A DNA stretch of 64,000 nt from Elusimicrobia bacterium UBA5214 (GTDB lineage: Bacteria > Elusimicrobiota > UBA5214), in the NCBI GenBank assembly GCA_002412545.1, contig DHVG01000002.1:130095-194094 (forward strand), read 5' to 3'. A model generated the notes under the pieces. The model searched no databases. It saw only the letters and a program-made list of their open reading frames with translations, and had not been told where the DNA came from. How positions within the stretch are numbered: position 1 is the stretch's first letter; each line of letters begins with the position of its first letter. Both the position numbers and the translations under genes were made by a program. Shown one piece after another: positions 1,486 through 64,000 of the stretch.

Positions 1486-2052
1486 ATGAAAAGATTCTTT
1501 ATGCCTTTGGATGAAAAAATACTCTCTGAATTGGAAATCGGAGATAAGATTTTGTTAAACGGAGTAATTTATACGGCGAGGGATGCCGCCCATAAGAAAA
1601 TAGTTGATAGTTTAAAGTTAAAAGTTAAAGGTTCAAAAATGAAACTACCTTTTGAACTTAGAGGTGCCGTAATTTATTATTGCGGACCGACACCGGCGAA
1701 ACCTGGACAAGCGATTGGTTCGGCTGGTCCGACTACTTCTCTAAGGATGGATATTTATACACCAACTTTGTTAAAATATGGTTTAAAAGGAACAATTGGT
1801 AAAGGGAAAAGGTCTAAAGAAGTAGTGGAAGCAATGAAAAAAAATAAAGCGGTATATTTCGTTGCCGTCGGTGGTGCCGGTGCGTTTCTTTCCAAACGGA
1901 TAAAAAAAGCCGAAATAATTGCTTACCCCGAACTTGGTCCGGAAGCAATTTATCGTTTAGAAATAAAAGATTTTCCGGTAATTGTAGCTAACGATATTTA
2001 TGGTAATGATTTATTCTTAGAAGGGAGAAGGGAATATGCTCTTAGCGATTGA
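1486..2052 (+). CDS. Class I fumarate hydratase / tartrate dehydratase beta subunit
   Basis: It follows the alpha subunit with a 1-nt gap. GPTPAKPG and AVGGAGA motifs match the Fe-S hydro-lyase beta-type catalytic domain. Confidence 0.75.
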   Translation: MKRFFMPLDEKILSELEIGDKILLNGVIYTARDAAHKKIVDSLKLKVKGSKMKLPFELRGAVIYYCGPTPAKPGQAIGSAGPTTSLRMDIYTPTLLKYGLKGTIGKGKRSKEVVEAMKKNKAVYFVAVGGAGAFLSKRIKKAEIIAYPELGPEAIYRLEIKDFPVIVANDIYGNDLFLEGRREYALSD

Positions 2053-3768: not shown

Positions 3769-6700
3769 ATGAGAATTGGTGTTGATATTGGCTCAATAAA
3801 TACAAAAATTGTTCTTCTTGACCAAGAAGATAAAATTATCTGGAAAAGTATCCTTAAACACGAAGGACAACCTTTAGAAATTGTAACTTCTTTTGTAGAA
3901 GAACTTTCTAACCAATTTGTTAGTCAAGATAATCAATTGTCTCTCAGCTTTACTGGTTCAGGAGGTGAATTTTTTGCTCGTCTTTTAGATACAGAATATG
4001 TAAACGAAATTATCGCTCAGACAAAGGCAAGGGAATTTTTATATCCGCAAGTGAAAACGATTATAGAAATCGGGGGAATGAGCACGAAAGTTATATTTTT
4101 TACCGGTGATGGTAAAAATGGGAACATAAATGATTTCGGTATGAATAGTATCTGTGCGGCAGGGACGGGTTCATTTCTTGACCAGCAAGCCAGACGGTTA
4201 GGTCTATCAATTGACGAATTTGGACAGAGAGCGGTGAAAGCAAAAAATATCTCTCGTCTTGCTGGTCGTTGCAGTGTTTTCGCAAAAACGGATATGATTC
4301 ATTTACAGCAAATGGCGACACCGGCAGAAGAAATTGTTGCTGGGTTATGTTTCGCTTTGGTGCGTAATTTCCAAGGAACAATTTTACGGGGGAGGAAAAT
4401 TGAAAAACCAATCCTTTTTCATGGTGGAGTAGCCGCAAATCCAGGGATAATCCGGGCTTTAAGAGAAATATTTGAATTAGATGATACCGCTTTAATTATT
4501 CCTGAATTATATTCTTATTTTAATGCTTTTGGGGCAACATTTTCTAAAAGTAAAGCAAAGAAAACTAATTTAACCGTGCTATTGGAAAAATTAAGGAATT
4601 CGCAAGTTGTCTTTAGACGGAAGACACTCCCACCTCTTAGCTCGGGTATTTTTGCGGACAATTTAAAAAAGACAGATAATAATCTTTTAAATTTTTCTAA
4701 TTTATCAGAAGAGATTAACGCTTACTTAGGTGTTGATGTCGGTTCAATCAGTACAAATTTAGTGGTAATTGATGAACAAAAGAACCTTTTAGCAAAACGG
4801 TATCTCTGGACTGCCGGTCGTCCCTTAGAAGCAATCCAAAAAGGTTTAAGTGAAATAGATAACGAAGTTGGGAAAAAAGTAAAAATTTGTGGTGTCTGCA
4901 CTACTGGTTCAGGTCGCTATCTTACGGCTGATTTTCTCGGTGCGGATATTGTAAGAAACGAGATTACTGCTCAGGCAACTGCAGCTAAAGAAATTGACCC
5001 GCAAGTTGATACAATATTTGAAATTGGTGGACAAGATTCAAAATTTATCACTCTTAAAAATGGTGTGATTACTGATTTCCAAATGAATAAAGTCTGTGCT
5101 GCCGGAACGGGTTCATTTCTTGAAGAACAAGCGGAACGGTTAGGGATGGAAATTGAGCAGGAATTTTCTCAATTAGCTTTAGCCGCGGATTCACCGGCAC
5201 GTCTCGGTGAGCGGTGTACAGTATTTATGGAAGAAGATTTAGTTAATCAGCAACAACAGGGAGTAAAAAAAGAAGATTTAGTTGCTGGACTTTGTTATTC
5301 CATAGTAGAGAACTATTTGAATCGTGTAGTTAGTGAAAAAAAGATTGGTAAAAATATATTTTTCCAGGGTGGTGTTGCTTTCAACCATGGTGTAGTGGAA
5401 GCATTTAAAAAAGTGCTTAAGGAAAGAGTTGGTGAGTGTAAATTTACTGTTCCTGAGCATCACGAAGTTACCGGTGCACTTGGTTGTGCCTTGATTGCTT
5501 TAGAAAATGCGTGTAGTTCAACTGCCGGGCATTGTTTTTCCACTAACTTTAAAGGTTTTGATTTAGCAAAAAGAAAATACGAACTGAAGAGTTTTGTCTG
5601 TCCGGACTGTGCTAATCATTGTGAAATAAAAGAAGTTGTTGTTGAAGGCGAGAAATCTTTATTTTATGGTTCAAGATGCGAAAAATATGAAATTAACCGT
5701 TTTAAAGTGAAAAGAAATATTCCTGACCTTTTTGCTGAACGAGAGAAACTTTTACTTAGCACTTACCATTCACCACTTACCACTTACCACTCACCAATTC
5801 GTATCGGTATTCCCCGCTTTTTTACTTTTTATGAATTTTACCCTTTTTTTAATTGTTTCTTTTCTGAATTAGGTCTGCAAGTAGTTCTTTCTGATTCAAC
5901 CAACCGCAAGATTATTAATCAAGGTTTAGAGAATGTACCGGTAGAATCATGTTTTCCCCATAAGGTAAGTCATGGACATATTTTGAATTTATTAGATAAA
6001 AATGTTGATTATTTATTTCTACCGAGTGTGATTAATTTTCCAGCAATTCAGAAAAGTATTAATAACAGTTTTACTTGTCCTTATGTGCAGACTTTACCTT
6101 ATGTGCTTAAAGTAAGTTTAGAAGAAAAAATAAAAGAAAAAAAGGTAAAAATTCTTCAGCCGATACTGTATTTCAGGGAAGAAAAGTTATTGTTTGAAGC
6201 AATGAAAAGGATAGCCCAACAATTGGGTTTTAAGGGAAAGAAAATAAAAAAAGCTTTCCTCCGGGGACTGGAAATACAAAATACTTTTTCTCAGCAATTG
6301 AAAGAACGCGGTAGAGAAATATTAGAACAATTGTCAGAAAATGAAAAAATTTTCGTTATTGTAGGTCGTTCATACAATAGTTATGATCGGGGGATGAATT
6401 TAGAAATAGTAAAAAAAATAAATAATCTCGGGATACTTACTTTACCGCTTGATTTTCTCCCTTTAGACAATGTGGATATTTCCGAAGAATTCCCGAATAT
6501 GTACTGGCTTTTTGGACAAAGGTTTTTAGCGGCAGCGGAAATAATTAAAAAAGATAGACGTCTCTATCCTCTTTATTTAACAAATTTTGCCTGCGGTCCG
6601 GATTCTTTTATTCTTAAATATTTTAGAGAAAAAATTTTACCTAAACCTTTCTTGGAAATTGAAATTGATGAACATAGTTCCGATGTAGGAATTATTACCC

Positions 6701-8689: not shown

Positions 8690-10318
<1,629 letters not shown>

Positions 10319-10372
10319 GAAATAGTTGATAGTTATTAGTGTATAGTTAATAGTTAAAACGGTTTAACACAG

Positions 10373-10402
10373 AAAGGCGACTTTTTTGAGTCGCCTTTTT
10401 TG
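10373..10402 (+). terminator. Rho-independent terminator after groEL
   Basis: aggcgac-tttttt-gagtcgcc stem-loop followed by a T-run. Confidence 0.7.
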
Positions 10403-13576: not shown

Positions 13577-14275
13577 TTGCAAATGATTAGTGATAATCTA
13601 AAAAAAGTACAAGAAAAAATAAATTTTACTTGTCAGAAAATTGGACGTAATCCAGAGGGAATAATTTTAGTTGCGGTAACAAAAAATGTGCCGGTAGAAA
13701 AAATTAAAGAAGTAATTTTTTTAGATGTAATAAACATTGGTGAAAACCGTGTGCAGGAAGCGCTCAAGAAGTATAGCGAATTAGCCATTAGCCATCAGCC
13801 ATCAGCTATCAGCCAAGTTAAATGGCATCTGGTTGGACATTTGCAAAAGAATAAAGTAAAATATGCCTTGAAAATATTTGACCTGATTCACTCAGTTGAC
13901 GATTTTGAGTTAGCCGAAGAAATTGATAAACAGGCAAAAAAAATTGGTAAAATCCAGGATTGTCTAATTGAAATAAAAGTTTCACCGGAAGTGACTAAAT
14001 ACGGTTGTCCACCCGAACCGGAAGAAGTTAAAAAGTTAATTGAGCGAATTAGCGAATTAGCGAATATTCGTATTCGTGGTCTAATGGCAATGGCACCGTT
14101 TTTTGAAAAATCCGAAGAGACTCGTCCCTATTTCCGTCAAGCATTTGAATGCTACTCGTTACTTGCTACTCGCTACTCGCTTACTTACTTATCAATGGGT
14201 ATGTCTAATGATTTTACTATTGCTTTAGAAGAAGGTGCAAATATGTTGCGTATTGGCACAGCTATATTTAAGTAA
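13577..14275 (+). CDS. yggS: YggS-family PLP homeostasis protein (alanine racemase N-terminal fold)
   Basis: ILVAVTKNVPVEKI..., GENRVQE and MGMSNDF.IA..EGAN.LRIGTAIF match. It lies upstream of proC, as in many bacteria. Two in-frame tandem-repeat insertions (13781-13815, 14151-14192). Confidence 0.8.
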   Translation: MQMISDNLKKVQEKINFTCQKIGRNPEGIILVAVTKNVPVEKIKEVIFLDVINIGENRVQEALKKYSELAISHQPSAISQVKWHLVGHLQKNKVKYALKIFDLIHSVDDFELAEEIDKQAKKIGKIQDCLIEIKVSPEVTKYGCPPEPEEVKKLIERISELANIRIRGLMAMAPFFEKSEETRPYFRQAFECYSLLATRYSLTYLSMGMSNDFTIALEEGANMLRIGTAIFK

Positions 14276-16930: not shown

Positions 16931-17060
16931 GGAAACGATAAGGGCAAACTCCTCCCCCGTTGTAACTTTGGGGGATCTCGATGGTTTACCTTCGGGAGAG
17001 AAATCGGAGGACGCAAAGCTACGGGGCTAAATCCACTGTCTGTGGATAAGTTGGCCGGGC
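16931..17060 (+). ncRNA. Putative cyclic-di-GMP-I (GEMM) riboswitch aptamer in the pilT leader
   Basis: AAGGGCAAAC...GGACGCAAAGCUACGGGGCUAAA matches the conserved GGGCAAAC / GGACGCAAAGCC...GGCCUAAA blocks of GEMM-I (Vc2-like). A candidate terminator/expression-platform hairpin sits at 17104-17170 (gccgagttacc...ggtaactcggc + tttt). Confidence 0.55.
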
Positions 17061-17197
17061 TGCCGAAAAGATTTAGGTATCATTCATTTGGCAGTGGATA
17101 TGCTCGCCGAGTTACCGAAAAAACGATAAAAAGTAAAACAAAATTTGAATAAGGTAACTCGGCTTTTATTTTGAGGGGAGAGGAGGAGTAATTAAGA

Positions 17198-18319
17198 ATG
17201 AAAATTGATGATTTATTGCGTTTGATGGTTTCAAACCGTGCTTCAGATTTGCATTTGAAAGCCGACACTCGTCCTTTATTGAGGATAGACGGAGAACTGA
17301 TTCCCGAGGATAAATTACCTGAATTTTCCAGTGCAGAAATCTGGGAACTGGTTTGCCAGATGATTGGCGAAGAGCAAAAAGATAAATTCACTCAGGAAAA
17401 AGAATTAGATTTTGCCTATAATCTATCCGGTTTAGCAAGATTTCGTGTAAACACCTATCTACAAAGAGGACAAATTGGTGTTTCAATAAGGGCGATTCCC
17501 TGGGATATTCCTACCTTAGATAAATTGGGATTTCCACCAGTGATTAAGGAGTTAGCTCTTAAACCGAGAGGTTTGGTCTTGGTCACCGGTCCGACGGGAA
17601 GCGGAAAATCAACAACTCTCGCGGCAATCATCAATTATATCAATGTTAATCGGCGTTGTCAGATAATTACTATTGAAGACCCGATTGAGTTTGTGCATAA
17701 AAATAAATTGAGTAATATTGACCAGCGCGAGTTAGGTAGTGACACTCTCTCCTTTGCTAATGCTTTGAAACATGTCCTCCGACAAGACCCGGATGTAATT
17801 TTAGTTGGTGAAATGCGCGACTTGGAAACAATCGCTTTAGCGATTACTGCTGCGGAAACCGGGCATCTAGTTTTTTCTACTTTGCATACTACGGGTGCGG
17901 CAGCAACCATTGACCGGATTATTGATGTTTTCCCACCAACTCAACAATCTCAGGTAAGGTTGCAAATTGCTACACTCTTGGAGGGGGTAATCTCTCAGAT
18001 TCTTTTACCCTGTGCGGATAGTAAAGGAAGAGTTGCTGCTTTAGAGATTATGATTTCTACTCCGGCGATTCGCAATCTTATCCGGGAGAATAAAGTTTTT
18101 CAGATTTCTTCGGTGATGCAAACCGGTGTTTCTTCAGGAATGCAGACACTTGACCTTGCTTTGAAGAAACTATGTGAAGAAAAACTGATTACTTACGAAG
18201 AAGCATTAACTAAGTGCAGCGAGCCGGAACAGTTTCAAAAAATGCACTCTGCGGGTAAATTCAGAGAGACCAAATTTAGTTCCCCAGCACCAATTTCTGG
18301 CAATGTCGTTCCTGCATAA
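17198..18319 (+). CDS. pilT: Type IV pilus retraction ATPase PilT
   Basis: Walker A GPTGSGKST, ITIEDPIEF, the Asp box and GMQT..L are PilT/PilU family motifs. Confidence 0.85.
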   Translation: MKIDDLLRLMVSNRASDLHLKADTRPLLRIDGELIPEDKLPEFSSAEIWELVCQMIGEEQKDKFTQEKELDFAYNLSGLARFRVNTYLQRGQIGVSIRAIPWDIPTLDKLGFPPVIKELALKPRGLVLVTGPTGSGKSTTLAAIINYINVNRRCQIITIEDPIEFVHKNKLSNIDQRELGSDTLSFANALKHVLRQDPDVILVGEMRDLETIALAITAAETGHLVFSTLHTTGAAATIDRIIDVFPPTQQSQVRLQIATLLEGVISQILLPCADSKGRVAALEIMISTPAIRNLIRENKVFQISSVMQTGVSSGMQTLDLALKKLCEEKLITYEEALTKCSEPEQFQKMHSAGKFRETKFSSPAPISGNVVPA

Positions 18320-21722: not shown

Positions 21723-21775
21723 GTGTGACCATTTCTCAAAAAGATAAAGAACTGCAGGCAGGACAACACCGTCCC

Positions 21776-22895
21776 TCAGTAGAATTTGTTAACAACGAAT
21801 TTAGCAATTCGACAGGCAGCATCAGGGAGAGAAAACTTTTTTACACGATTTTGTAATTCCTTAATTTTTTCCGGTGAATTAACCAGTTTGACAATCAAAG
21901 AGACAATTTTATCCGGTTCGGTCTCCACATAACCAAGTTCATGTTTCTTAATTAGTTCCGCATTACCTTCTTCCTGCCCGGGAGTAATATGGGTAATGAT
22001 TATCGGTTTACCAGCAGCAAGACATTCGGTTACAATTGCTCCTCCAGCTTTAGTTACCACTAAATCCGCTGCCCGTAAGTAATTAGCCATATTATCTACC
22101 CAGGAGAAAATGCGTGTTGACGGGAAATATTTTCTTTTGCTTAATTCTTGGTAAACATTCTCATACTTGCCGCAGATTACCATAATCTGTCCAGGTAGAC
22201 CTACATAATTGCTTAACTTCTTAATTACTGCAAGCAATTTTTCTATTTTTCCTAAACCAAGGGTGAAAAGGATAGTCGGCACTTCCGAGTTTAATCCTAA
22301 ATCGTTAAGGAATTTGTTCCGATTGAAAGGTTCACCAAGTTCAGGATTTACTGGGAAACCAAAGACCTTGATTTTTTCCGGATTAACCCCTTGGTTTATA
22401 ATTACTTCGGCAGTATCTTGGTTCGGAACAAAATAGTAATTGACTAATTCACTTAGCCACGAATAGTGTATAGAAATTGAGTCAGTAATTACCATTAAAT
22501 ATTTTATTTTTTGGTTAAACTTTTCGTTATATACTTCAAGGATATAATTCCAGTAAGGATGAGTAGAAATAAGCAGGTCCGGTCTCTTTTCGTTGAAAAG
22601 TTGGTAAAATGGTTTATAAAAAGGTTCAGTAAAAATGTTCATAATCCGGAATATCTGTTTACAGTTGGTAAGACGGTAGGTTAAGTCCCAGAGGGAAGGA
22701 CAATATTCAACACTTTTTTCGTAGTAGTTACGGGCAAAATTGGTAATTAAAGGATTACCAATTTTTACTAAATCAAGCACCTCAGTTTCTACTTCTTCCG
22801 GGTATCCGCCGATTTGGCGGATTGCTTCATTGAGATAACGTGCGGCAGTTAGATGTCCTGAACCATAACTTGCGGTTAAAATGAGGATTTTTTTC
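21776..22895 (-). CDS. Monogalactosyldiacylglycerol-synthase-like glycosyltransferase (MGDG_synth N-domain plus GT1 C-domain)
   Basis: MKKILILTASYGSGHLTAARYL start with RBS agagga. The C-terminal GT-B block (VTKAGGAIVTECLAAGKPIII...PGQEEGNAE) is present. Confidence 0.7.
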
Positions 22896-22997: not shown

Positions 22998-24710
22998 TTA
23001 CATTTTTTCCGGTGCAGAAACACCGATTAAGTCCAACCCGGTTCGGATAATTGTTCTTACTGCTTCTACTAAACTTAGCCGGGCTAAAGTCAAATTCCTA
23101 TCTTCGGAAATTACCCGATATTTTTCGTAATAACGGTGGAACAAATTAGCCAACTCCAAGAGATAGACCGCTAAATTGTGCGGACTTAAATTTTCTGCAC
23201 AAGTTACCAGAATATCCGGGAAAAAAGAAAGTTTTTTTATTAAGTCAAGTTCTGATTTTTCTTTCAATAGTTGATAGTTGATAGTTAATAGTTGATAGTT
23301 GATTCCTTCTTTTTCTGCCTGACGGAAGATACTTACTGCACGCGTATGTGCGTATTGGATATAGTAGACCGGATTTTCCGGGGATTGTTTCTTTGCCAAG
23401 TCAAGGTCAAATTGTAATTGTGCTTCCGGTGAACGGGTAAGAAAGAAATAACGACAGGCATCTTTTCCTACCTCATCCAGTAATTGTCGCAGAGTAACAA
23501 ATTCACCTGCCCGGGTAGACATTGCTACCGGTTGTCCTTCACGGATAAGACTTACCAACTGGTAAAGAATAATCTGTAACTGCTCCGGTTTGTAACCGAG
23601 GGCTTTTATTCCGGTTTTCATCCGGGCAATGTATCCGTGGTGGTCAGCTCCCCAGAGGTTGATTAGGCGGTCAAATTTTCGTTCCAATTTATCCCGGTGG
23701 TAGGCAAGGTCACCAGCTAAATAAGTTGGACGGCCGTCAGCACGAATCAGAACCCGGTCTTTCTCATCGTTCCCTAAGGTAGATTTGAACCATAAAGCAT
23801 TGTCTTTTTCGTAGGCATATCCCTTCTCTTTCAGTTGAGAAATTGTCTCTTCCACTTTTTTCTTTTGGTAAAGGTCGGACTCGGTGGACCAAATATCAAA
23901 TTTAATACTAAAATCTTCCAAATCTTTTTTGATGTCTTCAAGGTTTTCTTCCATAGCGATTTTGGAAAAATAACTTTCTGGTTTCTTTTCTATATCGGCT
24001 GGAGTAAGAACTCCTGCTCTTTCTTGACGGGCTATCTTTGTAGCCATTTCTATAATATCCTTTATATACTCCCCACGGTATGCAGCATTATTTAACCATT
24101 CTTCTTCTTCCGGTGTTAATTTCTTCTTAAATATGAATTCTTTTATTCTTAATTTTACCGTTTTACCTAAGTTTTCAATCTGGTTGCCGATATCATTGAT
24201 ATAATACTCCCTTTTTACTTCCCAACCGAGAAAAGAAAAAATTCTGGCTAAAGAATCACCGATTGCTGCACCTCTGCCGTGTCCGACATGGAGCGGACCG
24301 GTAGGATTTGCCGAGACAAATTCAAAAAGTATTTTTTCTCTTTTACCTAAGTTTGTTTTTCCATAATTTTTTCCTTGTCCTAAAATTGTTTTTAATTCTT
24401 GATAAACTCTTTCTGGAGCAAGAGAAAAATTGAGAAAAACCGGGGGCATAAATTCGACTTTAACGAACGGAGAAGAGGGAGTGATAAGTGAAGGGATAAT
24501 TTTATTGGTAATCTCCATAATCTCCACGGCTGGTTTATCTATCTCCTGACTAATAATTGAAACAATATTACATGACCCATCAGCAGAAATGTGTGCAGGT
24601 GGAATTTCTACCGTAGGTTTTGGTAGTTTTCTATTCTCAGGAATAATTTTTTCTTTTTTTAGTTGTTCAATCAGCTGGTCAATAAAAGTATAAATTTCTT
24701 CTTTAATCAT
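22998..24710 (-). CDS. argS: Arginine--tRNA ligase
   Basis: Class I HIGH motif (PTGPLHVGHGRG), the anticodon-binding DALK domain and a C-terminal ...VSAPEKM. It contains an in-frame TAGTTGA tandem repeat (23266-23303). Confidence 0.95.
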   Translation of the reverse strand: MIKEEIYTFIDQLIEQLKKEKIIPENRKLPKPTVEIPPAHISADGSCNIVSIISQEIDKPAVEIMEITNKIIPSLITPSSPFVKVEFMPPVFLNFSLAPERVYQELKTILGQGKNYGKTNLGKREKILFEFVSANPTGPLHVGHGRGAAIGDSLARIFSFLGWEVKREYYINDIGNQIENLGKTVKLRIKEFIFKKKLTPEEEEWLNNAAYRGEYIKDIIEMATKIARQERAGVLTPADIEKKPESYFSKIAMEENLEDIKKDLEDFSIKFDIWSTESDLYQKKKVEETISQLKEKGYAYEKDNALWFKSTLGNDEKDRVLIRADGRPTYLAGDLAYHRDKLERKFDRLINLWGADHHGYIARMKTGIKALGYKPEQLQIILYQLVSLIREGQPVAMSTRAGEFVTLRQLLDEVGKDACRYFFLTRSPEAQLQFDLDLAKKQSPENPVYYIQYAHTRAVSIFRQAEKEGINYQLLTINYQLLKEKSELDLIKKLSFFPDILVTCAENLSPHNLAVYLLELANLFHRYYEKYRVISEDRNLTLARLSLVEAVRTIIRTGLDLIGVSAPEKM

Positions 24711-26991: not shown

Positions 26992-27092
26992 TCCGTTATT
27001 TCCGTTGAGTCCGTTTTGACCGTTTAGTCGGTTATTTCCGTTGAGACCGTTGAACGGGCTGAACGGACTAAACGGATTAAACGGACTTAACG
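26992..27092. repeat. Roughly 100-bp hairpin built from CCGTT/AACGG heptamer-like repeats. It fills the entire proA-nadD intercistronic gap.
   Basis: The left half is (tccgtt[atg]n)x6 and the right half is (aacgg[agt]n)x6, so the two halves are reverse complements. Confidence 0.85.
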
Positions 27093-33668: not shown

Positions 33669-34664
33669 TCAATGTTTAGTTTTCTTTTTTTCCCTCTCTC
33701 TTAAACACATCTCAGCAGCGAGTTTAACTGCGGAGAACATCGGGCGTGCGTCAGCGAGATTTTTACCGGCAATGTCAAAAGCAGTGCCGTGTCCGGGTGA
33801 AGTGCGAATGAAGGGCAAACCAAGGGTAACATTGACTAAAGAATAAGGGTCAAGCAGTTTTAGAGGTATCATTGCCTGGTCGTGATACATTACAATAATT
33901 AAATCATATTTTTTCCACCACTGGAAAACCGTATCTGCCGGTAAAGGACCTGTAACTTGCAACTTGTAACCTGTAACTTGTTTGATTGCCGGGATGATTA
34001 TCTCTTTTTCTTCCTTACCGAGAACTCCGCCTTCGCCGCGGTGCGGATTTAAGGCACAAACCGCAATTCTTAGTTTAGCAATAGAGAAATATTTTTCTAA
34101 TGCTTTGGCTCCAAGTTTAATTGCCAAAATAATTTTTTCTTTAGTTAAACTATTAGCGACATCTTTTAAAGGTAAATGCCGGGTAACCATTGCTACTTTA
34201 AGTTTTTTGTTCACCATCAGCATAAGCAAATTCTTTTTCCCGGTTAATTCAGCAAGGATTTCGGTATGTCCGGAATAATTCAATCCGGCACGGTTTAATG
34301 CTTCTTTAGATATCGGTGCAGTAACCAAACCGTCCACCTGTCCATTCTGCACCAATTCTACTGCTTTTTTGATATATTCATAACTTAATTGTCCATACTC
34401 AGAGTTAGTCATACCGAAGTTTAGTTTCCTAATCTTGCCGATATTGATTAATTCAAATTCTCTATTGGAAACGACTGGAGGGTATTTTTTAAGATAAAAG
34501 TCTAAAACTGATTTTGTACCGATAACTACCGGTTGGCAAATTTGGTAAACTTCTTTCTTGGCAAGTGTTTTGATGACTATTTCCGGACCGATACCTGCAG
34601 GGTCACCGATTGTGATTGCAAGAGACGGCTTTTTACTCAATTTCGCTAATTTTGATTGTAGCAT
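33669..34664 (-). CDS. pdxA: 4-hydroxythreonine-4-phosphate dehydrogenase
   Basis: ITIGDPAGIGPEIV, HTE, NPHRGEGG and SPGHGTAFDIAGK are PdxA signatures. It contains an in-frame repeat (33949-33980). Confidence 0.85.
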   Translation of the reverse strand: MLQSKLAKLSKKPSLAITIGDPAGIGPEIVIKTLAKKEVYQICQPVVIGTKSVLDFYLKKYPPVVSNREFELINIGKIRKLNFGMTNSEYGQLSYEYIKKAVELVQNGQVDGLVTAPISKEALNRAGLNYSGHTEILAELTGKKNLLMLMVNKKLKVAMVTRHLPLKDVANSLTKEKIILAIKLGAKALEKYFSIAKLRIAVCALNPHRGEGGVLGKEEKEIIIPAIKQVTGYKLQVTGPLPADTVFQWWKKYDLIIVMYHDQAMIPLKLLDPYSLVNVTLGLPFIRTSPGHGTAFDIAGKNLADARPMFSAVKLAAEMCLREREKKKTKH

Positions 34665-35703
34665 TACTCCTTAATTGTTTTAAGAAATCCTGATATATTT
34701 TTTCTGCTTTACTCCGATAGAGATACTCTTGTAACTCTTCCTTCACTTCGCTATAAGTGAGTTTACTTTTTGCTTTTTTCTCTTCACATTTGATTAAATG
34801 ATAACCAAAATCAGTCTCCACAATATCGCTTACTTCGCCCACCGGTAAGGAAAAGGCAACTTTTTCAAATTCGGGAACCATATCGCCGTGGACAAAAAAA
34901 CCGAGGTCGCCGCCTTGTTCTTTACTTCCCGGGTCTTCAGAATATTTTCGTGCTAATTCACTGAAATCTTCACCGTTTTTAATCTTTTGTTGGATTTCTT
35001 TGATTTTGTTCAGTGCAGTTGTCTTATCCTGCATACTGGCATTTTTTTCTACCCGAATAAGAATATGTCTCACTCGGACACGTTCAGCAGTGCGCCGCTG
35101 AAAGAATTTGGCTAAACTGGCAATTTCATTTTCTTCTTCAGCGGATAGATTTGGGTCTTGTTTCCCGTCAATTTGGTCAACAATTTTATCGTACAATTTT
35201 GTAGTTTCTTCTTCTTTGGGTACCCCCACTTTCGCTTTTATTTCTAAATCAATAAGTTTAATCACCATCAATTGGTCCTGGATTCTTTTTTCAAAATCAG
35301 TTTCAGTTAAAGATTGTTTTTTTAATTCGGTTTGGAAATCTTCCGGGTTAGGGAAACGTTTTTTTACTTCGTTGACCCCATCCTCAATCTCTCTTTTGGC
35401 AACCACAATTTTGCGTTTCTTTGTCTCCTGAAGTAAGATTTTTTCGTCAATCATCTGATTGAGGACATCTTTTTTTAACTGACGGATTTTTTCCGTAGTT
35501 TGTTCACTTGCCGGGGTTAAAAGTTTATATTGTTCAACTAATGGCTGGACATTTTTTTCTAACTCGGAGAGAAGGATTGCCTCACCATTAACCATAGCGA
35601 TAGTTTTATTTACCACCGTTTTCTCTTGAGCAAGGACTGACTGAGTCAGTAACCAATAACCGATAACCAGTAACCAATAACCGAATTTCAAGGATTTCTT
35701 CAT
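34633..35703 (-). CDS. SurA/PrsA-like periplasmic chaperone with a parvulin PPIase domain
   Basis: Signal peptide and a parvulin block VRHILI...GGDLGFF..G.M...F...AF.L..GEVS..V.T.FGYHLIK. The signal peptide itself is encoded by the tandem repeat LVIGYWLLVIGYWLL. Confidence 0.7.
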   Translation of the reverse strand: MKKSLKFGYWLLVIGYWLLTQSVLAQEKTVVNKTIAMVNGEAILLSELEKNVQPLVEQYKLLTPASEQTTEKIRQLKKDVLNQMIDEKILLQETKKRKIVVAKREIEDGVNEVKKRFPNPEDFQTELKKQSLTETDFEKRIQDQLMVIKLIDLEIKAKVGVPKEEETTKLYDKIVDQIDGKQDPNLSAEEENEIASLAKFFQRRTAERVRVRHILIRVEKNASMQDKTTALNKIKEIQQKIKNGEDFSELARKYSEDPGSKEQGGDLGFFVHGDMVPEFEKVAFSLPVGEVSDIVETDFGYHLIKCEEKKAKSKLTYSEVKEELQEYLYRSKAEKIYQDFLKQLRSNATIKISEIE

Positions 35704-43842: not shown

Positions 43843-45453
43843 TCATCCTTTCAAAATTGGTAAAGTAATTACAAATTTTGCACCTTTATCTTTACCTTCA
43901 CTTTCTACTCTAATGTTTCCTTGGTGTTTCTGAATGATTCCGTGGCTTACCGAAAGTCCTAATCCAGTTCCCTTGCCTACTTCTTTGGTAGTAAAAAACG
44001 GTTCAAAGATGTGTTTCAAATTCTCTTTTTCAATTCCTATACCGGTGTCAATAAAAGAAATTTCTATTGAATCCGGTTCTCTGAAGTATGTATTTATGGT
44101 TAAGGTGCCACCTTTAGGCATCGCTTGTTGTGCATTTACAATGATGTTCAAAAATACCTGTTGTAAATGACTTGTACTTGCATTTATAAAAGGTGAATTC
44201 TGAGCGTAATTCCTGACTATTTTTACATTAGCAAGTGTAATTTGATGTTCACATAACTTCAATGTTTCTTCAATTACTTCATTAACATTAGCCGGTTTAA
44301 AATCAAATTGGGATTGCCTGGAGAAACTTAACAAACTGGCAATAATCTTTTTACAGCGCTGAGCAGATTTCTCAATTTCTTTGAGGTCATTTTTCCAAGG
44401 AATATCGTTGGGTATTTCGTTAATAAGTATTTGGGCAAAACCCAGTATCCCGCTTAAAGGATTATTCAATTCATGAGCCGCTCCTCCGGCTAACTGCCCA
44501 AGAGCGGCTAATTTCTCCGATTGGATAAGTTTTGCTTGTGATATTTCAAGATTACGGCATACCTCTTTTAATTCGGTGATTTTCTCCTCTAATTTTTTAT
44601 AAAGATGTGCGTTTTCTATTGCCTGACTGATTTGAGCGACAAAAACCGAAACCATCTGAAGGTCAGTTTGACTAAAATTTTCTTTAGTTTGGGTCCTCGT
44701 CAGGTTGATTAACCCGAGGAGATTGTCCCCTCGTATTATTGGAAAAAGAATTGCCGAATTTGTTCCATTGTAATCTACAAATTTGTTAAATTCCGGATAG
44801 TTGCCGAATCCTTCAACTAAAAGTAAAGGTGCTCTTGTCTGTTTGGTCTTCTCAGCAATAATCTGACCGAGGGTTAACCTTTTTTCTTTCTCAATTTCTC
44901 CATCAAATCCAGAAGAAGCAGCAAGATAAAGTTTTTCTTGTTCGTCATAAAGCATAATTGATACCTCGTCAGCACGGAAAGTCCTAATACTTAAATCAAC
45001 GATTATATTCAGCAGGTCGTCTAACTTTAGCGAAGAGAATACTGCCCTACTTGTTTCGTAAAGGGCAAGGGTAAATTTTAATTCTTTCTTTTCTAAAACT
45101 TTTTCAATGAGAGTAGTTAATTCATCAATATTGAACGGTTTGGCGATGTAATCATAAGCACCCATTTTCATACATTCTACTGCCGTTTCTACCGTGCCGT
45201 AACCGGTAGCAACAATTGCTTCTATTGTCGGGTCAATTTTTTTTATTTCTTTCAAGGTTTCCGTGCCACTTAATTTTGGCATTTTTAAGTCAAGAATAAC
45301 CAAGTCAAACTTTCCTTGTTTAACTTTTTCTATTCCCTCAAGACCGTCAGCAGTGGTAACGATACTATACCCTCGTGAACCCAATTCAAAAGTAAGTAAA
45401 TCCCGCAACCCCCTTTCATCATCAATGACTAAAATTTTTTGTTTACTTCCCAT
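43843..45453 (-). CDS. Hybrid REC-GAF-HisKA-HATPase histidine kinase
   Basis: N-terminal receiver (ILVIDDERGLRDLL...DLVILDLKMPKLSG), a GAF-like middle, H-box AAHELNNPL and HATPase G-boxes. Confidence 0.8.
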   Translation of the reverse strand: MGSKQKILVIDDERGLRDLLTFELGSRGYSIVTTADGLEGIEKVKQGKFDLVILDLKMPKLSGTETLKEIKKIDPTIEAIVATGYGTVETAVECMKMGAYDYIAKPFNIDELTTLIEKVLEKKELKFTLALYETSRAVFSSLKLDDLLNIIVDLSIRTFRADEVSIMLYDEQEKLYLAASSGFDGEIEKEKRLTLGQIIAEKTKQTRAPLLLVEGFGNYPEFNKFVDYNGTNSAILFPIIRGDNLLGLINLTRTQTKENFSQTDLQMVSVFVAQISQAIENAHLYKKLEEKITELKEVCRNLEISQAKLIQSEKLAALGQLAGGAAHELNNPLSGILGFAQILINEIPNDIPWKNDLKEIEKSAQRCKKIIASLLSFSRQSQFDFKPANVNEVIEETLKLCEHQITLANVKIVRNYAQNSPFINASTSHLQQVFLNIIVNAQQAMPKGGTLTINTYFREPDSIEISFIDTGIGIEKENLKHIFEPFFTTKEVGKGTGLGLSVSHGIIQKHQGNIRVESEGKDKGAKFVITLPILKG

Positions 45454-45833
45454 TAGTCCTTACCTCTTTGATAGACAGTAGATTTTTCGATTATAGTGAA
45501 TATCTCATTTATGTCAACCGGTTTATAAAGGCAGGTATAAGCACCGAGTTCTTTTGCCTTGTTTTCAAAAGTAAAGGCAGGGTCTGAACTGCTGCTGAAG
45601 ATCACTACAACCTGGGTCGGTCGTAATTGTTTGATAATTTTCAGTGCTTCCGGTCCTCGCATTCTCGGCATATGCACATCTAAAAAAATAATATCAAAAG
45701 TATCTTTTTTTACCATTTCTATACCTTCTAACCCATCGTTAGCGGTAAATACTTCAAAACCGTTTGGTTCTAAGAGAAATTTAAACAAATCCCGTATTCC
45801 TTGTTCGTCATCAACAACTAATATTTTTTTCAT
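45453..45833 (-). CDS. Single-domain response regulator
   Basis: KILVVDDEQGIRDLF...DIIFLDVHMPRMRG. Confidence 0.85.
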   Translation of the reverse strand: MKKILVVDDEQGIRDLFKFLLEPNGFEVFTANDGLEGIEMVKKDTFDIIFLDVHMPRMRGPEALKIIKQLRPTQVVVIFSSSSDPAFTFENKAKELGAYTCLYKPVDINEIFTIIEKSTVYQRGKD

Positions 45834-45932
45834 TTCCGATTTCCGATTTTAGATTTACGATGTCAATCGTCAATCAACAATCATCAATCACTAAATCGGT
45901 AGTTTTCTCGTAAAAGTTGTTCCTTTCTTTGA

Positions 45933-50152: not shown

Positions 50153-50240
50153 AGGTGGTTAGGTGGCTAAGTGGTCAGGTAGTTAGTTTAAACCTAATAA
50201 CTTCCTTACTTCACTTACTCACTTAACCACTTAACCACTT
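50153..50240. repeat. Inverted pair of heptamer tandem arrays (GGTGGTTA... / ...TTAACCAC). One arm encodes the C-terminus and stop codon of the PfkB kinase gene.
   Basis: ggtggttaggtggctaagtggtcaggtagttagtt - taaacctaataa - cttccttacttcacttactcacttaaccacttaaccac. Confidence 0.8.
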
Positions 50241-51908: not shown

Positions 51909-52883
51909 TTAAATAAGTTTTACTTCTTGTTTACCGGAAACGATTTTACCAATAATAACCGAGTTTTTCAGTAACTTATGAACTCGTGAACTTATCAACC
52001 CTGAACCAAAACGGTTCAGGGTAAACTTATCAACTATTATCACCATGCCAACTCCCATATTAAATATACGGAACATTTCTTTTTCCGGAATTTTACCTTT
52101 ATCCTGAATGATGCGGAAAATTTCCGGTACTTGCCAACTTTTTTTATCAATTACCGCTTGACAATTCTTGGGTAAAATACGAGGTATATTGTCGTAGAAT
52201 CCACCACCGGTGATGTTGACGATTCCGCTGATGGCTGATGGCTGACGGCGGATGGCGGATAATATCTCTTTGACATAAATCTTGGTAGGGGTGAGGAGTT
52301 CTTCACCGTATTTAATTAGTTCTTTTTTGGAGAAAATTTTGCGCACTAAGGAGAAACCGTTTGAATGTAAGCCACTTGAAGGTAGACCGATAATTAAATC
52401 ACCGGGTTTAATTTTTCTACCATCAATAACTTTATTTTTTTCTACCAAACCGACGGTAAAACCAGCTAAATCGTATTCACCTTCATGATAAAATCCGGGC
52501 ATTTCAGCAGTTTCACCACCAAGAAGGATACAATCTGCCTGACAGCATCCTTCGTTTATACCTTTGATAATTTGTTCGGCAACTTTTAAATCCAATTTAC
52601 TACAAGCGAAATAATCAAGAAAAAATAAAGGTTTTGCTCCACAACAGATTACATCGTTGACATTCATTGCTACTAAATCAACCCCGACGGTATTGTGTTT
52701 ATTTAAGAGAAAAGCGAGTTTAAGTTTTGTGCCGACACCGTCACTGGAAGCAGAAAGATAATGTTTCTTATCTAATGGATATAAACCGCTAAATCCGCCG
52801 ATTACCGGAGCAATTTTTTTAATCCTTTTTACGAAAAGGTTACCTTTGTCAATGTCTACACCCGCTTGTTTGTAAGTTACCAT
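51909..52883 (-). CDS. purM: Phosphoribosylformylglycinamidine cyclo-ligase (AIR synthetase)
   Basis: VTYKQAGVDIDKGN, DGVGTKL and LVAMNVNDV are PurM signatures. In-frame AGCCATC repeat at 52226-52262. Confidence 0.9.
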   Translation of the reverse strand: MVTYKQAGVDIDKGNLFVKRIKKIAPVIGGFSGLYPLDKKHYLSASSDGVGTKLKLAFLLNKHNTVGVDLVAMNVNDVICCGAKPLFFLDYFACSKLDLKVAEQIIKGINEGCCQADCILLGGETAEMPGFYHEGEYDLAGFTVGLVEKNKVIDGRKIKPGDLIIGLPSSGLHSNGFSLVRKIFSKKELIKYGEELLTPTKIYVKEILSAIRRQPSAISGIVNITGGGFYDNIPRILPKNCQAVIDKKSWQVPEIFRIIQDKGKIPEKEMFRIFNMGVGMVIIVDKFTLNRFGSGLISSRVHKLLKNSVIIGKIVSGKQEVKLI

Positions 52884-56472: not shown

Positions 56473-57501
56473 TCATTCGTGTATCATACTGCCGGTTAGT
56501 TTACTCAAGGTAATTTTTTGTATTTTAAGATATTGTTTTAGACCGATAAGTATTTTCTGTGGTAAAAATGGGTCACGGAAAAGAGCGCTACCTAAAGCAA
56601 TTGCTTTTGCACCGACAAGAAAAAATTCTATTGCATCTTGAGGACTATTTATTCCACCCATACCGATAATTGGTATTTTAACCTTTTGGTAAGTTTCGTA
56701 AATCATCCGTAAAACAATTGGTTTAATTGCTGGACCAGATAAACCACCAAAGACTGGTGAGTGGGAAGTGGTGAGTGGTGAGTGGGGAAAGGCAAGGGCG
56801 GAGAAAGTGTTGACTAAAGAGAGAGCATCGGCACCGGCAGATTCGGCAGTTTTGGCAATTACAGTTATATCCGTAACATTAGGGGTAAGTTTAGCAATTA
56901 CCGGTAATTTGGTTACCTTTTTTACTCTCTTTACCACCTCGTAAGTCAGTTCTGCATCCTGCGAGATAAGCGAAATTACTCCTTGCTCGGAGTTTATCCC
57001 CCCATTCTTGCTTTCGCCTGCCCCCGCGTCTCCCGACGCAAGTCGGGGCGGCGGGCAAGAAAGCAGGGGGGGACTCTTTGCTCTTGGCTCTTTGCTACGA
57101 ACATTCGGACAAGAAAGATTTAATTCCAGAGCAGATATACCTTTTTCTTTGTCTAATCTACGAGAAATCTCAGCGAATTCTTCTGCGTTCTCCGCAGCAA
57201 TACTTACGACTATTGGTATTTTAAGTTTTCTTTTTAAAAAAGGTAATTTTTCTTTTAGAAAAATTTCCAAACCCGGATTTTCCAGACCAATTGAATTAAT
57301 CATTCCTTCCATTGTTTCTACAATTCTCGGCGACGGATTACCCGCACGCGGTTTAAGAGTAACTGTCTTTGTAGTTATCGCCCCGAAAACATTCAGGTTA
57401 ATTAACTTACTGTATTCTTCACCAAAACCAATAATTCCACTGGCAACAAGGAGTGGATTTTTTAGTTTTATTCTGGCAATTTCAGTTGATAAATTAACCA
57501 T
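56473..57501 (-). CDS. pyrD: Dihydroorotate dehydrogenase catalytic subunit (class 1B)
   Basis: NPLL.ASG, ...ELN.SCPN..., GG and other TIM-barrel FMN motifs. It carries a ~35-aa low-complexity insertion (AKSPPLLSCPPPRLASGDAGAGESKNGGINSEQG) encoded by a GC-rich palindrome at 56997-57098, plus a heptamer repeat at 56745-56790. Confidence 0.85.
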   Translation of the reverse strand: MVNLSTEIARIKLKNPLLVASGIIGFGEEYSKLINLNVFGAITTKTVTLKPRAGNPSPRIVETMEGMINSIGLENPGLEIFLKEKLPFLKRKLKIPIVVSIAAENAEEFAEISRRLDKEKGISALELNLSCPNVRSKEPRAKSPPLLSCPPPRLASGDAGAGESKNGGINSEQGVISLISQDAELTYEVVKRVKKVTKLPVIAKLTPNVTDITVIAKTAESAGADALSLVNTFSALAFPHSPLTTSHSPVFGGLSGPAIKPIVLRMIYETYQKVKIPIIGMGGINSPQDAIEFFLVGAKAIALGSALFRDPFLPQKILIGLKQYLKIQKITLSKLTGSMIHE

Positions 57502-59254: not shown

Positions 59255-60105
59255 TCCCAGATTATTTGATTTGCTTCAAAAACTGGTCCATCTTTACAGA
59301 CGGTCTTGTAGACGAAATGCTGGTGGCTAGTGGTTAGTGATTGATGGCTGGTTTTCACAACACATCCTCGGCAAGCACCAAGACCACAAGCCATCATTGC
59401 TTCTAAAGATACCTGATAGGGAATTTTGTATTTTTGTGTAATTTTAGCAATTTCTTTTAGCATTGCATAGGGACCACAAGCATATATATTAGTTATGAGT
59501 GATGAGTTATGAGTTATGAGTGAATTTCTGAACAGGTCAGTGACAAGACCTTTATAACCAAGGGAACCGTCTTCAGTAGCGAGTTTAACCTGGCAACCAA
59601 GTTTTTTGAAATTATCAATGCAGAGGAGGTCGTTTTTTGTTTTTGCACCAAGGAAAACAGTTAAAGGTGTAAGGTGTGAAGTGTAAAGTGTAATTAACTT
59701 CTGAGCAAGGAAGAGAAGTGAGGCGACACCGGTGCCACCGGCGATGAGGATGGGTGATTGGGTGATTGGGTGATTGAGTGATTGAGTAAAACCGTTACCG
59801 AGGGGACCAAGCACATCTAAAGTATTACCTTTTTTCTTTCGGGATAAGAGTTCAGTTCCTTTACCGACAACTTTGTAGATTATTTCAACCTGATTTTTTT
59901 TGACTTTCGCGATACTGAAAGGACGACGAAGGTAAGTACCTTCTCCACAATAAATATGGACAAATTGTCCCGGTTGAGCAATTTGGGCAATCTGTGGGGC
60001 AGAAAAAATTAAACGAAAATAGCCGGATGAGATTTCTTTCTGGTCAGTGATTAAGGATTGTAAATGATAAACTTTATTCTGAATAGACAATTTTGCCGTT
60101 AACAA
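59251..60105 (-). CDS. pyrK: Dihydroorotate dehydrogenase electron-transfer subunit
   Basis: FAD/NAD-binding FNR-like fold (RPFSIA, GGTGVA) and a C-terminal 2Fe-2S Cys cluster (CGLGACRGC). It holds four separate in-frame tandem-repeat insertions. Confidence 0.8.
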   Translation of the reverse strand: MLTAKLSIQNKVYHLQSLITDQKEISSGYFRLIFSAPQIAQIAQPGQFVHIYCGEGTYLRRPFSIAKVKKNQVEIIYKVVGKGTELLSRKKKGNTLDVLGPLGNGFTQSLNHPITQSPILIAGGTGVASLLFLAQKLITLYTSHLTPLTVFLGAKTKNDLLCIDNFKKLGCQVKLATEDGSLGYKGLVTDLFRNSLITHNSSLITNIYACGPYAMLKEIAKITQKYKIPYQVSLEAMMACGLGACRGCVVKTSHQSLTTSHQHFVYKTVCKDGPVFEANQIIWE

Positions 60106-61354
60106 TAGTATTGACTACCTTACCCGTTACCTGCCAGCCAAGAAAAGGTGAATTTTTACTTTTGGAAACAAAATTTTCTACTTTCCATTTCTTGTTCAAG
60201 TCAACAATGGTAATATCGGCTGGAGAACCAGGTTTCAGTTGTCCGGAGTTGAGTTTCAAAACTTGTGCCGGATTAATCGTGACTTTGGCGATTGCTTCCA
60301 TTAACGAGATAATTTTCTTATTTACTAATTCAGTAACCACCAAGGAAAGTAAAGTTTCCAAACCGATAATCCCAAACGGTGCTAAATCGTATTCTTTATT
60401 TTTTTCTTCTTCAGTATGTGGTGCATGGTCAGTAGCGATACAGTCAATTGTTCCGTCTGTTAATCCCTTTTTGATTGCTTCCACATCTTCTTTCGTTCTT
60501 AAAGGAGGATTAACTTTTGTATTTGTGTCAAATTGAGAAACTTTCTCTTCAGTAAGAGTGAAATATTGTGGTGCAGTTTCACAGGTAACCCGGATACCTC
60601 GTTTTTTTGCTTGCCGGATTAGTTCTACCGAGCCAGCAGTAGAAATATGAGCAATATGCAAATGCCCACTGGTAAGTTCAGCTAAGATTATATCCCTTGC
60701 TACCATTGCTTCTTCGGCTTCTTTTGGTATCCCGTGGAGACCTAAAATTGTAGAATAGTATCCTTCATTCATTGCTCCATCTTTAGATAAATTTTTGTCT
60801 TCACAATGGGAAATTACTGGCAAGTCAAACATTTTTGCATATTCTAATGCCCGACGCATAATCAGACTATTCATTACTGTTTCACCGTCATCAGAAATTG
60901 CTACGATGCCGGCTTTTTTCAATTCACCAATTTCGGATAATTCTTCACCTAACGAACCTTTAGTGATTGCACCAATTGGTAAAACATTGACCACACCTTC
61001 ATTTTTTGCTTTGAGCAGAATAAATTCAACCGTGGTTTGGTCGTCAATTACTGGATGAGTATTTGGCATACAACAGACGGTAGTAATACCACCTTTTGCT
61101 GCTGCCCGTGTCCCAGTAGCAATCGTCTCTTCTTCTTCATGTCCGGGTTCACGCAAATGGGTATGCATATCAATAAGTCCGGGAATAACAATTTTACCTT
61201 TAGCATCAATGACTTTTATGGCTGATGGCTGTTGGCTGATGGCTGATGGCTTACCGATAGAAACAATTTTGCTATCTTCAACTAAAATATCGGTGATTCT
61301 GTTCGTTTTACTTGCCGGGTCAATTACTCTACCACTTTTAACGAGCAACTTCAT
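60074..61354 (-). CDS. pyrC: Dihydroorotase
   Basis: Amidohydrolase metal ligands DMHTHLREPG, ...HxH and D...H. In-frame AGCCATC repeat at 61213-61245. Confidence 0.85.
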   Translation of the reverse strand: MKLLVKSGRVIDPASKTNRITDILVEDSKIVSIGKPSAISQQPSAIKVIDAKGKIVIPGLIDMHTHLREPGHEEEETIATGTRAAAKGGITTVCCMPNTHPVIDDQTTVEFILLKAKNEGVVNVLPIGAITKGSLGEELSEIGELKKAGIVAISDDGETVMNSLIMRRALEYAKMFDLPVISHCEDKNLSKDGAMNEGYYSTILGLHGIPKEAEEAMVARDIILAELTSGHLHIAHISTAGSVELIRQAKKRGIRVTCETAPQYFTLTEEKVSQFDTNTKVNPPLRTKEDVEAIKKGLTDGTIDCIATDHAPHTEEEKNKEYDLAPFGIIGLETLLSLVVTELVNKKIISLMEAIAKVTINPAQVLKLNSGQLKPGSPADITIVDLNKKWKVENFVSKSKNSPFLGWQVTGKVVNTIVNGKIVYSE

Positions 61355-63395: not shown

Positions 63396-64000
63396 CTAAC
63401 TCCCTAACTTCCTAACTGCTTTTATCCCGATATCTCTTCGGTAATGCATCTTCTCAAATTTTATTTTTTCTACCGCGCTATATGTATTCTTTATCGCTTT
63501 TTCTATATTTTCACCTAAACCAGTTACACCGAGCACTCTCCCGCCATTGGTCACTAAAGTTGACCGTTCACCGTTCACCGTTAACCGTTTAGTGCCAGCA
63601 TGGAAAACAGTTATATTTTGCATTTTTTTCGTTTCTTCAAGACCAAATATTTCTTTACCTTTTTCGTAATCACCCGGATAGCCACCAGAAGCGAGGACGA
63701 CACAAACTGACGAACAAGCAGACTGGTGATTAGTGGTTAGTGATTGGTAATCGGACAAATTTTTGTCAATTGTGGCTAAACAGAGGTCAACTAAATCTTC
63801 ATTAAGCAAAGGTAAAGTTACCTGTGCTTCCGGGTCACCGAAACGACAATTGAACTCTAAAACTTTTGGTCCTTCTTCAGTAATCATTAAACCAAAATAG
63901 ATTATCCCCCGATAGTCCAGTTTTTCTGCATTTATCCCTTTTATAAAGTTAGCAAATATTTCTTTATCTATTTTTTTTCTAATTTTTTCGTTAATAATCG
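63396..64000 (-). CDS. purD: Phosphoribosylamine--glycine ligase (partial; the N-terminus lies beyond the window end)
   Basis: GIIYFGLMITEEGPKVLEFNCRFGDPE ATP-grasp block. The frame is open past 63887 to the window edge. Two in-frame heptamer repeats (63545-63575, 63715-63745). Confidence 0.85.
   Translation of the reverse strand, partial: IINEKIRKKIDKEIFANFIKGINAEKLDYRGIIYFGLMITEEGPKVLEFNCRFGDPEAQVTLPLLNEDLVDLCLATIDKNLSDYQSLTTNHQSACSSVCVVLASGGYPGDYEKGKEIFGLEETKKMQNITVFHAGTKRLTVNGERSTLVTNGGRVLGVTGLGENIEKAIKNTYSAVEKIKFEKMHYRRDIGIKAVRKLGS

Follow-up and report, generated by a model that had tools for sequence, protein, structure and literature searches.

How an arginyl-tRNA synthetase gene (argS) comes to contain a tandem array of the heptamer TAGTTGA, and why the same unit recurs just beyond a groEL stop codon, is the question raised by a 64,000-nt stretch of contig DHVG01000002.1 from Elusimicrobia bacterium UBA5214 (hereafter the window, numbered from its first nucleotide). 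An earlier sequence-only reading of the window had noticed both arrays and treated the one in argS as an insert. Both arrays are real, and they belong to a population of heptanucleotide simple-sequence repeats (SSRs) that extends throughout the lineage. The arrays are DNA-level repeats that are read in all three frames and are strongly over-represented in this clade; those within coding sequences (CDS) occupy the fastest-evolving, structurally permissive protein segments and leave protein length unchanged. The phenomenon is genome-wide and clade-wide, which the sequence-only reading missed; the search that it proposed for other TAGTTGA arrays brought to light more copies as well as an entire family of heptamer arrays.

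The open reading frame (ORF) bearing the argS array matched 8,000 ArgS homologues and the solved arginyl-tRNA synthetases (ArgRS) 3fnr and 2zue. Its closest named relatives belong to the Elusimicrobiota/Endomicrobia, at no more than 48% identity. Tandem Repeats Finder (TRF) reports a period of 7, with 5.3 copies, 93% matches and a score of 67 at 23267-23303; the coordinates first proposed were within 1-2 nt of these (the string originally quoted starts at 23265), and the description of a DNA-level tandem array of 7-nt units holds. The + strand reads TAGTTGA TAGTTGA TAGTTAA TAGTTGA TAGTTGA. The gene is antisense to this strand and its sense unit is ATCAACT; the coding strand, ATCAACT ATCAACT ATTAACT ATCAACT ATCAACT, specifies INYQLLTINYQLLK (INYQLLT-INYQLLK, residues 470-483). 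Identity at a lag of 21 nt is complete (16/16), whereas at a lag of 7 nt there are two mismatches; the array is therefore exactly a block of three units duplicated in tandem (21 nt, 7 codons). A 21-nt step is the sole in-frame move open to a heptamer array. An assembly artefact is excluded, since two other Joint Genome Institute (JGI) contigs (L001 and L002) match 5.7 kb of the window at 100% identity and the ArgS protein is the same on five contigs. RNA of the argS array folds no better than shuffled sequences (z = +1.1).

The array does not lengthen the protein. From the invariant Arg-457 to the near-invariant Leu-482 the window ArgS has 24 residues, and in an alignment of 70 ArgS the modal length of this segment is 24-25. 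The window segment GINYQLLTINYQLLKEK aligns without gaps with GIDYKLPITDYRSLREK, GIDCKSQIADFKLLKEK and GIDYKLETIDYKLLKEK of the closest relatives (P0002, P0004 and P0005), and the equivalent segment is present in 2zue and 3fnr (P. horikoshii and C. jejuni). These length-neutral alignments to close and distant orthologues and to solved structures rule out an insert; what had been taken for one is a native segment. In an AlphaFold (AF2) model with a mean predicted local distance difference test score (pLDDT) of 93.7, the array-coded segment forms the loop between helices 447-467 and 485-495, and its pLDDT of ~85 is the lowest in the C-terminal domain. Pfam places DALR_1 at residues 451-570, so that the loop lies within the anticodon-binding domain, past its first helix. 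The loop thus adjoins the anticodon-binding region, as the sequence-only reading had suggested, but it does not precede the domain. The 14-residue window coded by the array is the most variable of ArgS, ranking first of 557 such windows in the 70-sequence alignment. The INYQLLTINYQLL peptide probably has no dedicated function and would merely take the place of a variable loop.

That the array is foreign or mobile repeat DNA inserted into the gene we regard as vanishingly improbable. Such an origin would suit the recurrence of the TAGTTGA unit at a second locus, as well as a 66-nt GC-rich insertion found within the argS array of the relative P0003. It is already refuted by the length-neutral alignments, and an array occupies the same codons in every clade member. 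On reading the flanks of the copies in argS, 3′ of groEL and at 1601, we found no similarity and no common terminal repeats or target-site duplications. Selection at the protein level, with INYQLL-type heptapeptide repeats aiding tRNA or partner binding, is very doubtful too. The window and P0005 do show a 7-residue repeat in two copies (I[DN]Y[KQ]L..), but the repeated residues use identical codons (the complete lag-21 identity noted above), and the 7-nt period is read in three frames. Unrelated peptides (RDEGRGT, YQARGTRHE) stand at the site in orthologues, and the DNA behaves in the same way in untranslated regions and in genes for a dozen unrelated enzymes.

We compared the argS DNA of six relatives, at 75-61% ArgS identity, and of the outgroup P0008, at 50%. 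A heptamer array is found at the same ArgS codons in all seven sampled clade lineages, with a unit that differs between them (Table 1); P0008 shows no heptamer periodicity at the site. In a control set of 86 argS genes, lag-7 identity at the site was 14-19/21 in the seven clade loci scored, against mostly 8-11/21 and never more than 14 in the 79 non-clade genes; P0006, added after this control, scored 20. The units of neighbouring lineages lie 1-3 positions apart and have changed in every copy together, a signature of concerted evolution in place. The argS alignment of two contigs that are about 92-96% identical (L005 and L006) breaks precisely at the array, and L006, which carries the argS of P0003, has both unit types with the 66-nt insertion between them. 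On a longer time scale the argS site is therefore a rearrangement hotspot.

The insertion in P0003 (L006 ~3519-3602) lies exactly within the array and codes for VVVSILRSGSTATAEDGQNQTLASDN. At the protein level a second ArgS insert, PLRPPSREAGSEAS-like, is seen near residue 536 in P0002, P0003 and P0005 (alignment columns 601-615). The inserts in these relatives may derive from small elements with arrays or loops as their insertion targets.

The second array reported by the sequence-only reading lies just past groEL, as claimed, and with the argS array it supports the view that one unit family is present in both CDS and intergenic DNA. The groEL stop codon (TAA) is at 10316-10318 and the array starts 4 nt beyond it; TRF spans it as 10321-10357, with 5.3 copies and 73% matches, or about five degenerate copies. 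It precedes a strong terminator-like hairpin and is unpaired in the centroid fold. A terminator scan did not list this hairpin, which folding shows clearly. At the same spot after the groEL stop, L003 reads TCAGTTGA TAGTTAA (2 copies) and L008 reads TCAGTTGA CAGTTAT TAGTTAA TAGTTGA GAGTTTA (5 copies). Position and a [TC]AGTT[GA][AT] unit are thus kept in three lineages, while copy number runs 5, 2 and 5. Copy number varies here by whole units, as one would expect with no frame to keep; in this untranslated region homogenisation would run without frame constraint and copy number would move in 7-nt steps.

The retention of position and unit after groEL would also suit another explanation, that the arrays are functional cis-elements. 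They would be heptad-spaced mRNA or DNA sites for a single-strand-binding or regulatory protein (of the cold-shock-domain type, for example), would control translation or mRNA fate, as proposed for the TAACTGA repeats described below, and would have their periodicity maintained by selection. Array position is likewise kept across lineages down to 61% ArgS identity, CDS arrays show a strand polarity, and two arrays end exactly at a start codon, as reported for TAACTGA repeats (PMC4679880). Set against this, unit sequence is conserved at no CDS site, the arrays lie in the least constrained protein segments, and CDS arrays occur in proportion to coding DNA rather than at particular gene positions. 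Single TAGTTRA words are not enriched (36 observed, 35.9 expected), and at the arrays we found neither RNA structure nor, in an Rfam scan of the window, any RNA family. No evidence of function emerged for the groEL 3′ array. We consider a cis-element role unlikely.

Across the window, 16 period-7 arrays were found under a looser rule and 9 under a strict one, against 0.03 and 0.05, respectively, in shuffled sequences. Periods 5 and 6 showed no excess, period 8 a smaller one (3 vs 0), and periods 9-12 gave no arrays. The TAGTTGA array pattern itself, with up to 2 mismatches allowed, has 18 matches where 8.05 are expected, a number reached in 0 of 100 shuffles. An array typically has about 4-6 copies and spans 25-43 nt. 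Of the 16 arrays 14 lie in CDS, about as frequently as the coding fraction of 0.92 predicts. Their hosts are ordinary enzyme genes, namely argS, purM, purD, pyrC, pyrD, pyrK (three arrays), pdxA, yggS, surA, fumarase and a BcrAD-like gene.

Table 1 Coordinates in the window of the genes, arrays and associated elements discussed, with the repeat units read at the orthologous argS site
Feature	Position	Strand	Unit, relatives or basis
Partial third TAGTTGA array in fumarase beta-subunit ORF 1486..2052	1601..1619	+, sense	TAGTTGA TAGTTTA AAGTT...; TAGTTGATAGTTTAAAGTT
Array in BcrAD/BadFG-like ORF	5754..5796	+	ACTTACC/ACTCACC
groEL (Cpn60)	8696..10318	+	91-93% identical to Pfam-annotated Cpn60 genes of L003, L008
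Intergenic array, groEL 3′ untranslated region (UTR)	10323..10357	+	TAGTTGA TAGTTAT TAGTGTA TAGTTAA TAGTTAA; reading, TRF
Intrinsic-terminator-like hairpin and U-tract	about 10373..10402	+	AAAGGCGACUUUUUUGAGUCGCCUUUUUUG; folding, z = -4.3
Array in yggS	13780..13813	+	AGCCATC type; L003 and L008, same codons, AGAGCCA
Array in yggS, second site	14153..14181	+	TACTCGC; same site in L003 (TTCCAAT), L008 (TTCAACT)
argS, arginyl-tRNA synthetase, 570 aa	22998..24710	-	Pfam tRNA-synt_1d and DALR_1, homologues, solved ArgRS
Array in argS, 5.3 copies	23267..23303	-	ATCAACT (+ strand TAGTTGA); sequence reading, TRF
argS site, window			GAATCAA CTATCAA CTATTAA CTATCAA CTATCAA CTATTGA (register after conserved G)
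argS site, P0002			GAATTGA TTACAAA TTACCGA TTACCGA TTACCGA TCACTTA
argS site, P0004			GTATTGA TTGCAAA TCGCAGA TTGCAGA TTTTAAA TTATTGA
argS site, P0003			like P0004 (TTGCAGA type), with 66-nt GC-rich insertion
argS site, P0005			TTACAAA TTAGAAA CTATAGA TTACAAA (decayed)
argS site, P0006			GCACGAG x4
argS site, P0007			GGACGAG x3
Array in pdxA	33954..33981	-	ACAAGTT
Array coding SurA signal-peptide region	35650..35682	-	GGTTATT; FGYWLLVIGYWLL; L003 and L007, same codons, TTGGCTA
Two adjoining intergenic arrays, ending at ATG of response-regulator ORF	45834..45890	-	GATTGAY x4, then ATCGGAA type x4
Array in purM	52227..52260	-	ATCAGCC; same unit as 13780 and 61218
Array in pyrD	56760..56785	-	CCACTCA
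Array in pyrK	59487..59521	-	ACTCATA
Further pyrK arrays	59664-59693; 59751-59784		second one an 8-mer array
Array in dihydroorotase gene	61218..61251	-	AGCCATC; same unit as 13780 and 52227
Array in purD	63559..63589	-	AACGGTG

Array density is 1.4 per 10 kb in the window and 1.7-3.8 per 10 kb in the relatives, compared with 0.16 per 10 kb around 79 other argS genes (1.32 Mb). Unrelated argS loci that are also array-rich are L015 (Candidatus Endomicrobium neocapritermitis), L047 and L063/L064. Their units include AATTACG, AATCGCG and AGCTATC, and some of their arrays lie within ORFs, giving peptides of like flavour (ITNYELRITN, SYQLSAFS). Codon alignments identify orthologous arrays with lineage-specific units in YggS (two sites and an 8-mer site), in the SurA signal peptide, in the BcrAD-like protein, in PdxA and in the aldehyde dehydrogenase Aldh. 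Between orthologues, array-coded columns are 44% identical against 76% elsewhere.

Which strand is read matters for such arrays. Both TAG and TGA are found on the forward strand of TAGTTGA, and none of its three frames is free of stop codons; TAGTTGA arrays therefore lie in CDS only antisense, and ORF-borne TAGTTRA arrays in metagenomes are antisense in 24 of 24 cases. The sense copy in the fumarase gene is tolerated because fewer than three perfect copies are read. The array in purD has two variant units, separated by 21 nt, at precisely those places where an in-frame TGA would result from a perfect unit. A suspected frameshift of purD at the array was rejected, the frame being open to the end of the window. 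CDS arrays (e.g. those at 13780, 23267, 52227, 56760 and 61218) are also G-poor on the sense strand, opposite to the local G>C skew.

Our favoured explanation, which we hold to be probable with real room for error, is that the arrays are heptanucleotide SSRs kept uniform in place by slippage or misaligned repair in a 7-nt register and filtered by reading frame, stop codons and structural tolerance. An ancestral array at each site would be continually homogenised where it stands, by slipped-strand mispairing or by misaligned templated repair in the 7-nt register. A variant unit could then spread through its array, giving concerted evolution, while selection would retain the stop-free orientation, an intact frame and permissive loops.

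Several observations sit uneasily with this explanation. Exactly 14 codons are kept at the ArgS site in five of seven lineages, whereas expansion and contraction predict a variable length. The lag-21 signature is present in argS and three other arrays, but there is no general excess of lag-21 over lag-7 identity across arrays (233 vs 235 of 259 positions). Nor is there copy-number polymorphism between near-identical genomes: six arrays are identical in L008 and L009, which are 99.9% identical (15 single-nucleotide differences in about 15 kb), and the window matches L001 and L002 exactly over the 5.7 kb compared. The identity of these six arrays shows in turn that they are not hypervariable contingency loci. 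Despite turnover of their CDS units, the lineages compared keep the groEL 3′ unit, which could reflect constraint and leaves room for a functional reading. Of eleven stop-free CDS units, ten contain stops when read as the reverse complement, against an expected 35% (P about 2e-4). Finally, identical units recur at unlinked loci: on P values that are modest and post hoc, AGCCATC is exactly common to three loci of the window (13780, 52227 and 61218; P about 0.003), TAGTTGA is shared between unlinked arrays of the window (P about 0.03), and AAATTGG occurs twice in L003 (16544-16577 and 20834-20853; P about 0.02). Local slippage does not account for unlinked identical units or for the strand polarity of CDS arrays.

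Only exact identity counts as evidence of sharing; near-identical units (up to 1 mismatch) gave 5 pairs against a null mean of 3.2, which is not significant. The notion that TAGTTGA is a universally favoured heptamer is unsupported. In metagenomes TAGTTGA arrays are widespread, occurring at no fewer than 120 loci with a GC content of 0.22-0.65, but in viral contigs 17 TAGTTGA stretches were counted, the same number as for AGCCATC, with 9 and 14 for the permuted controls. As these counts resemble those of the controls, the metagenome matches are not special.

The shared units would be explained by a trans-acting or ectopic process that writes genome-specific units into existing arrays, through templated repeat synthesis at breaks or conversion between arrays. 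This would cover the unit common to argS and the groEL 3′ region, and it is in keeping with units shared beyond chance, with a TAGTTGA that is not favoured everywhere, and with arrays that are length-neutral and fairly uniform in size. We nevertheless think it improbable. Units at the ArgS site shift in small steps that track relatedness (GCACGAG/GGACGAG; TTACCGA/TTGCAGA), and the CTATAGA variant of P0005 resembles CTATCAA of the window, as fits evolution in place. Moreover, arrays with an identical unit have no similar flanks, and a candidate enzyme was not identified. In its boldest form the proposal is that an active, unit-specific homogenising process rewrites permissive segments of essential genes, as well as UTRs, into length-neutral heptamer arrays and spreads units to unlinked loci, such as argS and the groEL 3′ region or the three AGCCATC sites. 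Such a process might act at fragile arrays, through templated synthesis or repair of repeats, or might pass sequence from one array to another. This we offer as a speculative idea with a small chance of being right; if true, it would be a previously undescribed directed turnover of sequence inside bacterial coding regions.

Heptanucleotide repeats have precedents. According to Mrazek et al. 2007, as summarised in PMC4679880 and PMC4692102, they are the most abundant class of long simple-sequence repeats (LSSRs) in many prokaryotes, with a 7-nt polymerase contact as a proposed cause. Published LSSRs are over-represented in intergenic DNA, and CDS are reported to be depleted of units whose length is not divisible by three. 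The arrays described here resemble LSSRs in being head-to-tail 7-nt arrays longer than chance, within the 5-11 nt range that defines the tandem unit. They share with LSSRs a sporadic phylogenetic distribution (here lineage-specific, given the densities and array-rich loci listed above), the dominance of period 7 over 5, 6, 8 and 9, and a proposed origin in polymerase slippage. They differ in that 14 of 16 lie in the CDS of conserved housekeeping genes, where they are length-neutral, at orthologous codons and turning over their unit.

Phase-variable contingency loci carry SSR tracts in Haemophilus, Neisseria and others. There, too, the repeat tract within a CDS has a unit length not divisible by three, and the frame would shift whenever one unit was gained or lost. 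The present arrays differ in showing no copy-number polymorphism between near-identical genomes and no sign of on/off switching, and their hosts are core enzymes (ArgS, PurM, PyrC and others) rather than surface, antigen or restriction genes. Concerted evolution of tandem arrays is familiar from minisatellites and rDNA spacers. Common to those systems and ours are lineage-specific substitutions shared by all copies in an array and arrays that differ between lineages; here the arrays are very small, at about 35 nt, are found within essential reading frames and hold their total length constant. Among heterocystous cyanobacteria, the short tandemly repeated repetitive (STRR) sequences of Calothrix and Nostoc have heptamer units (CCCCAGT, TTGGTCA, CAACAGT) and are mainly intergenic. 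Several heptamer families dispersed over one genome are a shared feature, and the SurA unit of the window, TTGGTTA, is one base off TTGGTCA. The units differ, as does the preference for intergenic DNA, and the host belongs to a different phylum-level lineage (nearest named ArgS Elusimicrobiota, about 48%). Three heptanucleotide families in Calothrix PCC7601 are cited in PMC4692102.

The nearest parallel is with the TAACTGA direct repeats of marine Beggiatoaceae, cyanobacteria and some Bacteroidetes (MacGregor 2015, PMC4679880). These occur inside ORFs only reversed, coding for LSVISYQ or LSVINYQLS in a variable surface loop (PMC4679880). Like TAGTTGA, TAACTGA has stops in all three forward frames and is confined to the reverse orientation in ORFs, and LSVINYQLS may be compared with INYQLLT of argS; it also occurs in sets of two to six copies, with no enrichment of the single heptamer word. 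The unit here is TAGTTGA/TAGTTAA, which matches at 5/7 positions and differs at 2/7. TAACTGA sets are overwhelmingly intergenic, forward and just upstream of start codons, whereas here one array follows a stop codon and most are in CDS; in addition, many different units coexist in the present window. The present arrays are the same kind of object as the TAACTGA repeats, differing in their units, their occupancy of CDS, their length neutrality and their orthologous persistence with turnover. Our full-text literature search did not find this combination of CDS-resident, length-neutral, orthologous arrays with unit turnover described. The two arrays at 45834-45890, which abut the start of the response-regulator ORF (45453..45833), resemble the TAACTGA repeats of Beggiatoaceae; the second of them reads ATCGTAA ATCTAAA ATCGGAA ATCGGAA.

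Repeats with other periods were also seen in the window. Period-8 arrays lie within yggS in two lineages, at 14038-14065 of the window (AATTAGCG) and at 16683-16710 of L003 (ATTCGCCA), and the phenomenon is therefore not strictly confined to 7-nt units. Further 8-mer arrays were located at 50153-50240, 59751-59784 and 63366-63422. Intergenic 9-nt arrays at 26992-27092 and 56375-56461 consist of (TCCGTTnnn) about 6x, followed directly by the inverted (nnnAACGGA) about 5x, and the RNA of the - strand would form long interrupted hairpins (-40.6 kcal/mol with z -4.8, and -24.8 kcal/mol with z -2.9); at 978-1014 a CDS contains an AACGGAC 8-mer array of related sequence. The sole match of the Rfam scan was a cyclic di-GMP (c-di-GMP-I) riboswitch (RF01051, 59.8 bits) at 16933-17067 (+), away from the arrays and upstream of ORF 17198..18319. 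At ~21700-22000 the GC skew changes sign, the cumulative skew peaks and gene orientation passes from + to - (convergent); this looks like a replication terminus.

Heptanucleotide repeats have been known since 2007 as the most over-represented class of long SSR in many prokaryotes; they have been treated as intergenic. This clade shows the repeat process at work within essential reading frames, where position and length are kept and the unit is turned over. Because of the arrays, housekeeping proteins acquire spurious "repeat peptides" and fast-evolving loops, which can mislead alignment, phylogeny and the annotation of inserts. The orthologous arrays in ArgS, YggS, SurA and others form a natural series in which concerted evolution can be measured, along with the 7-nt register and the filtering by stop codons and by the 21-nt frame.

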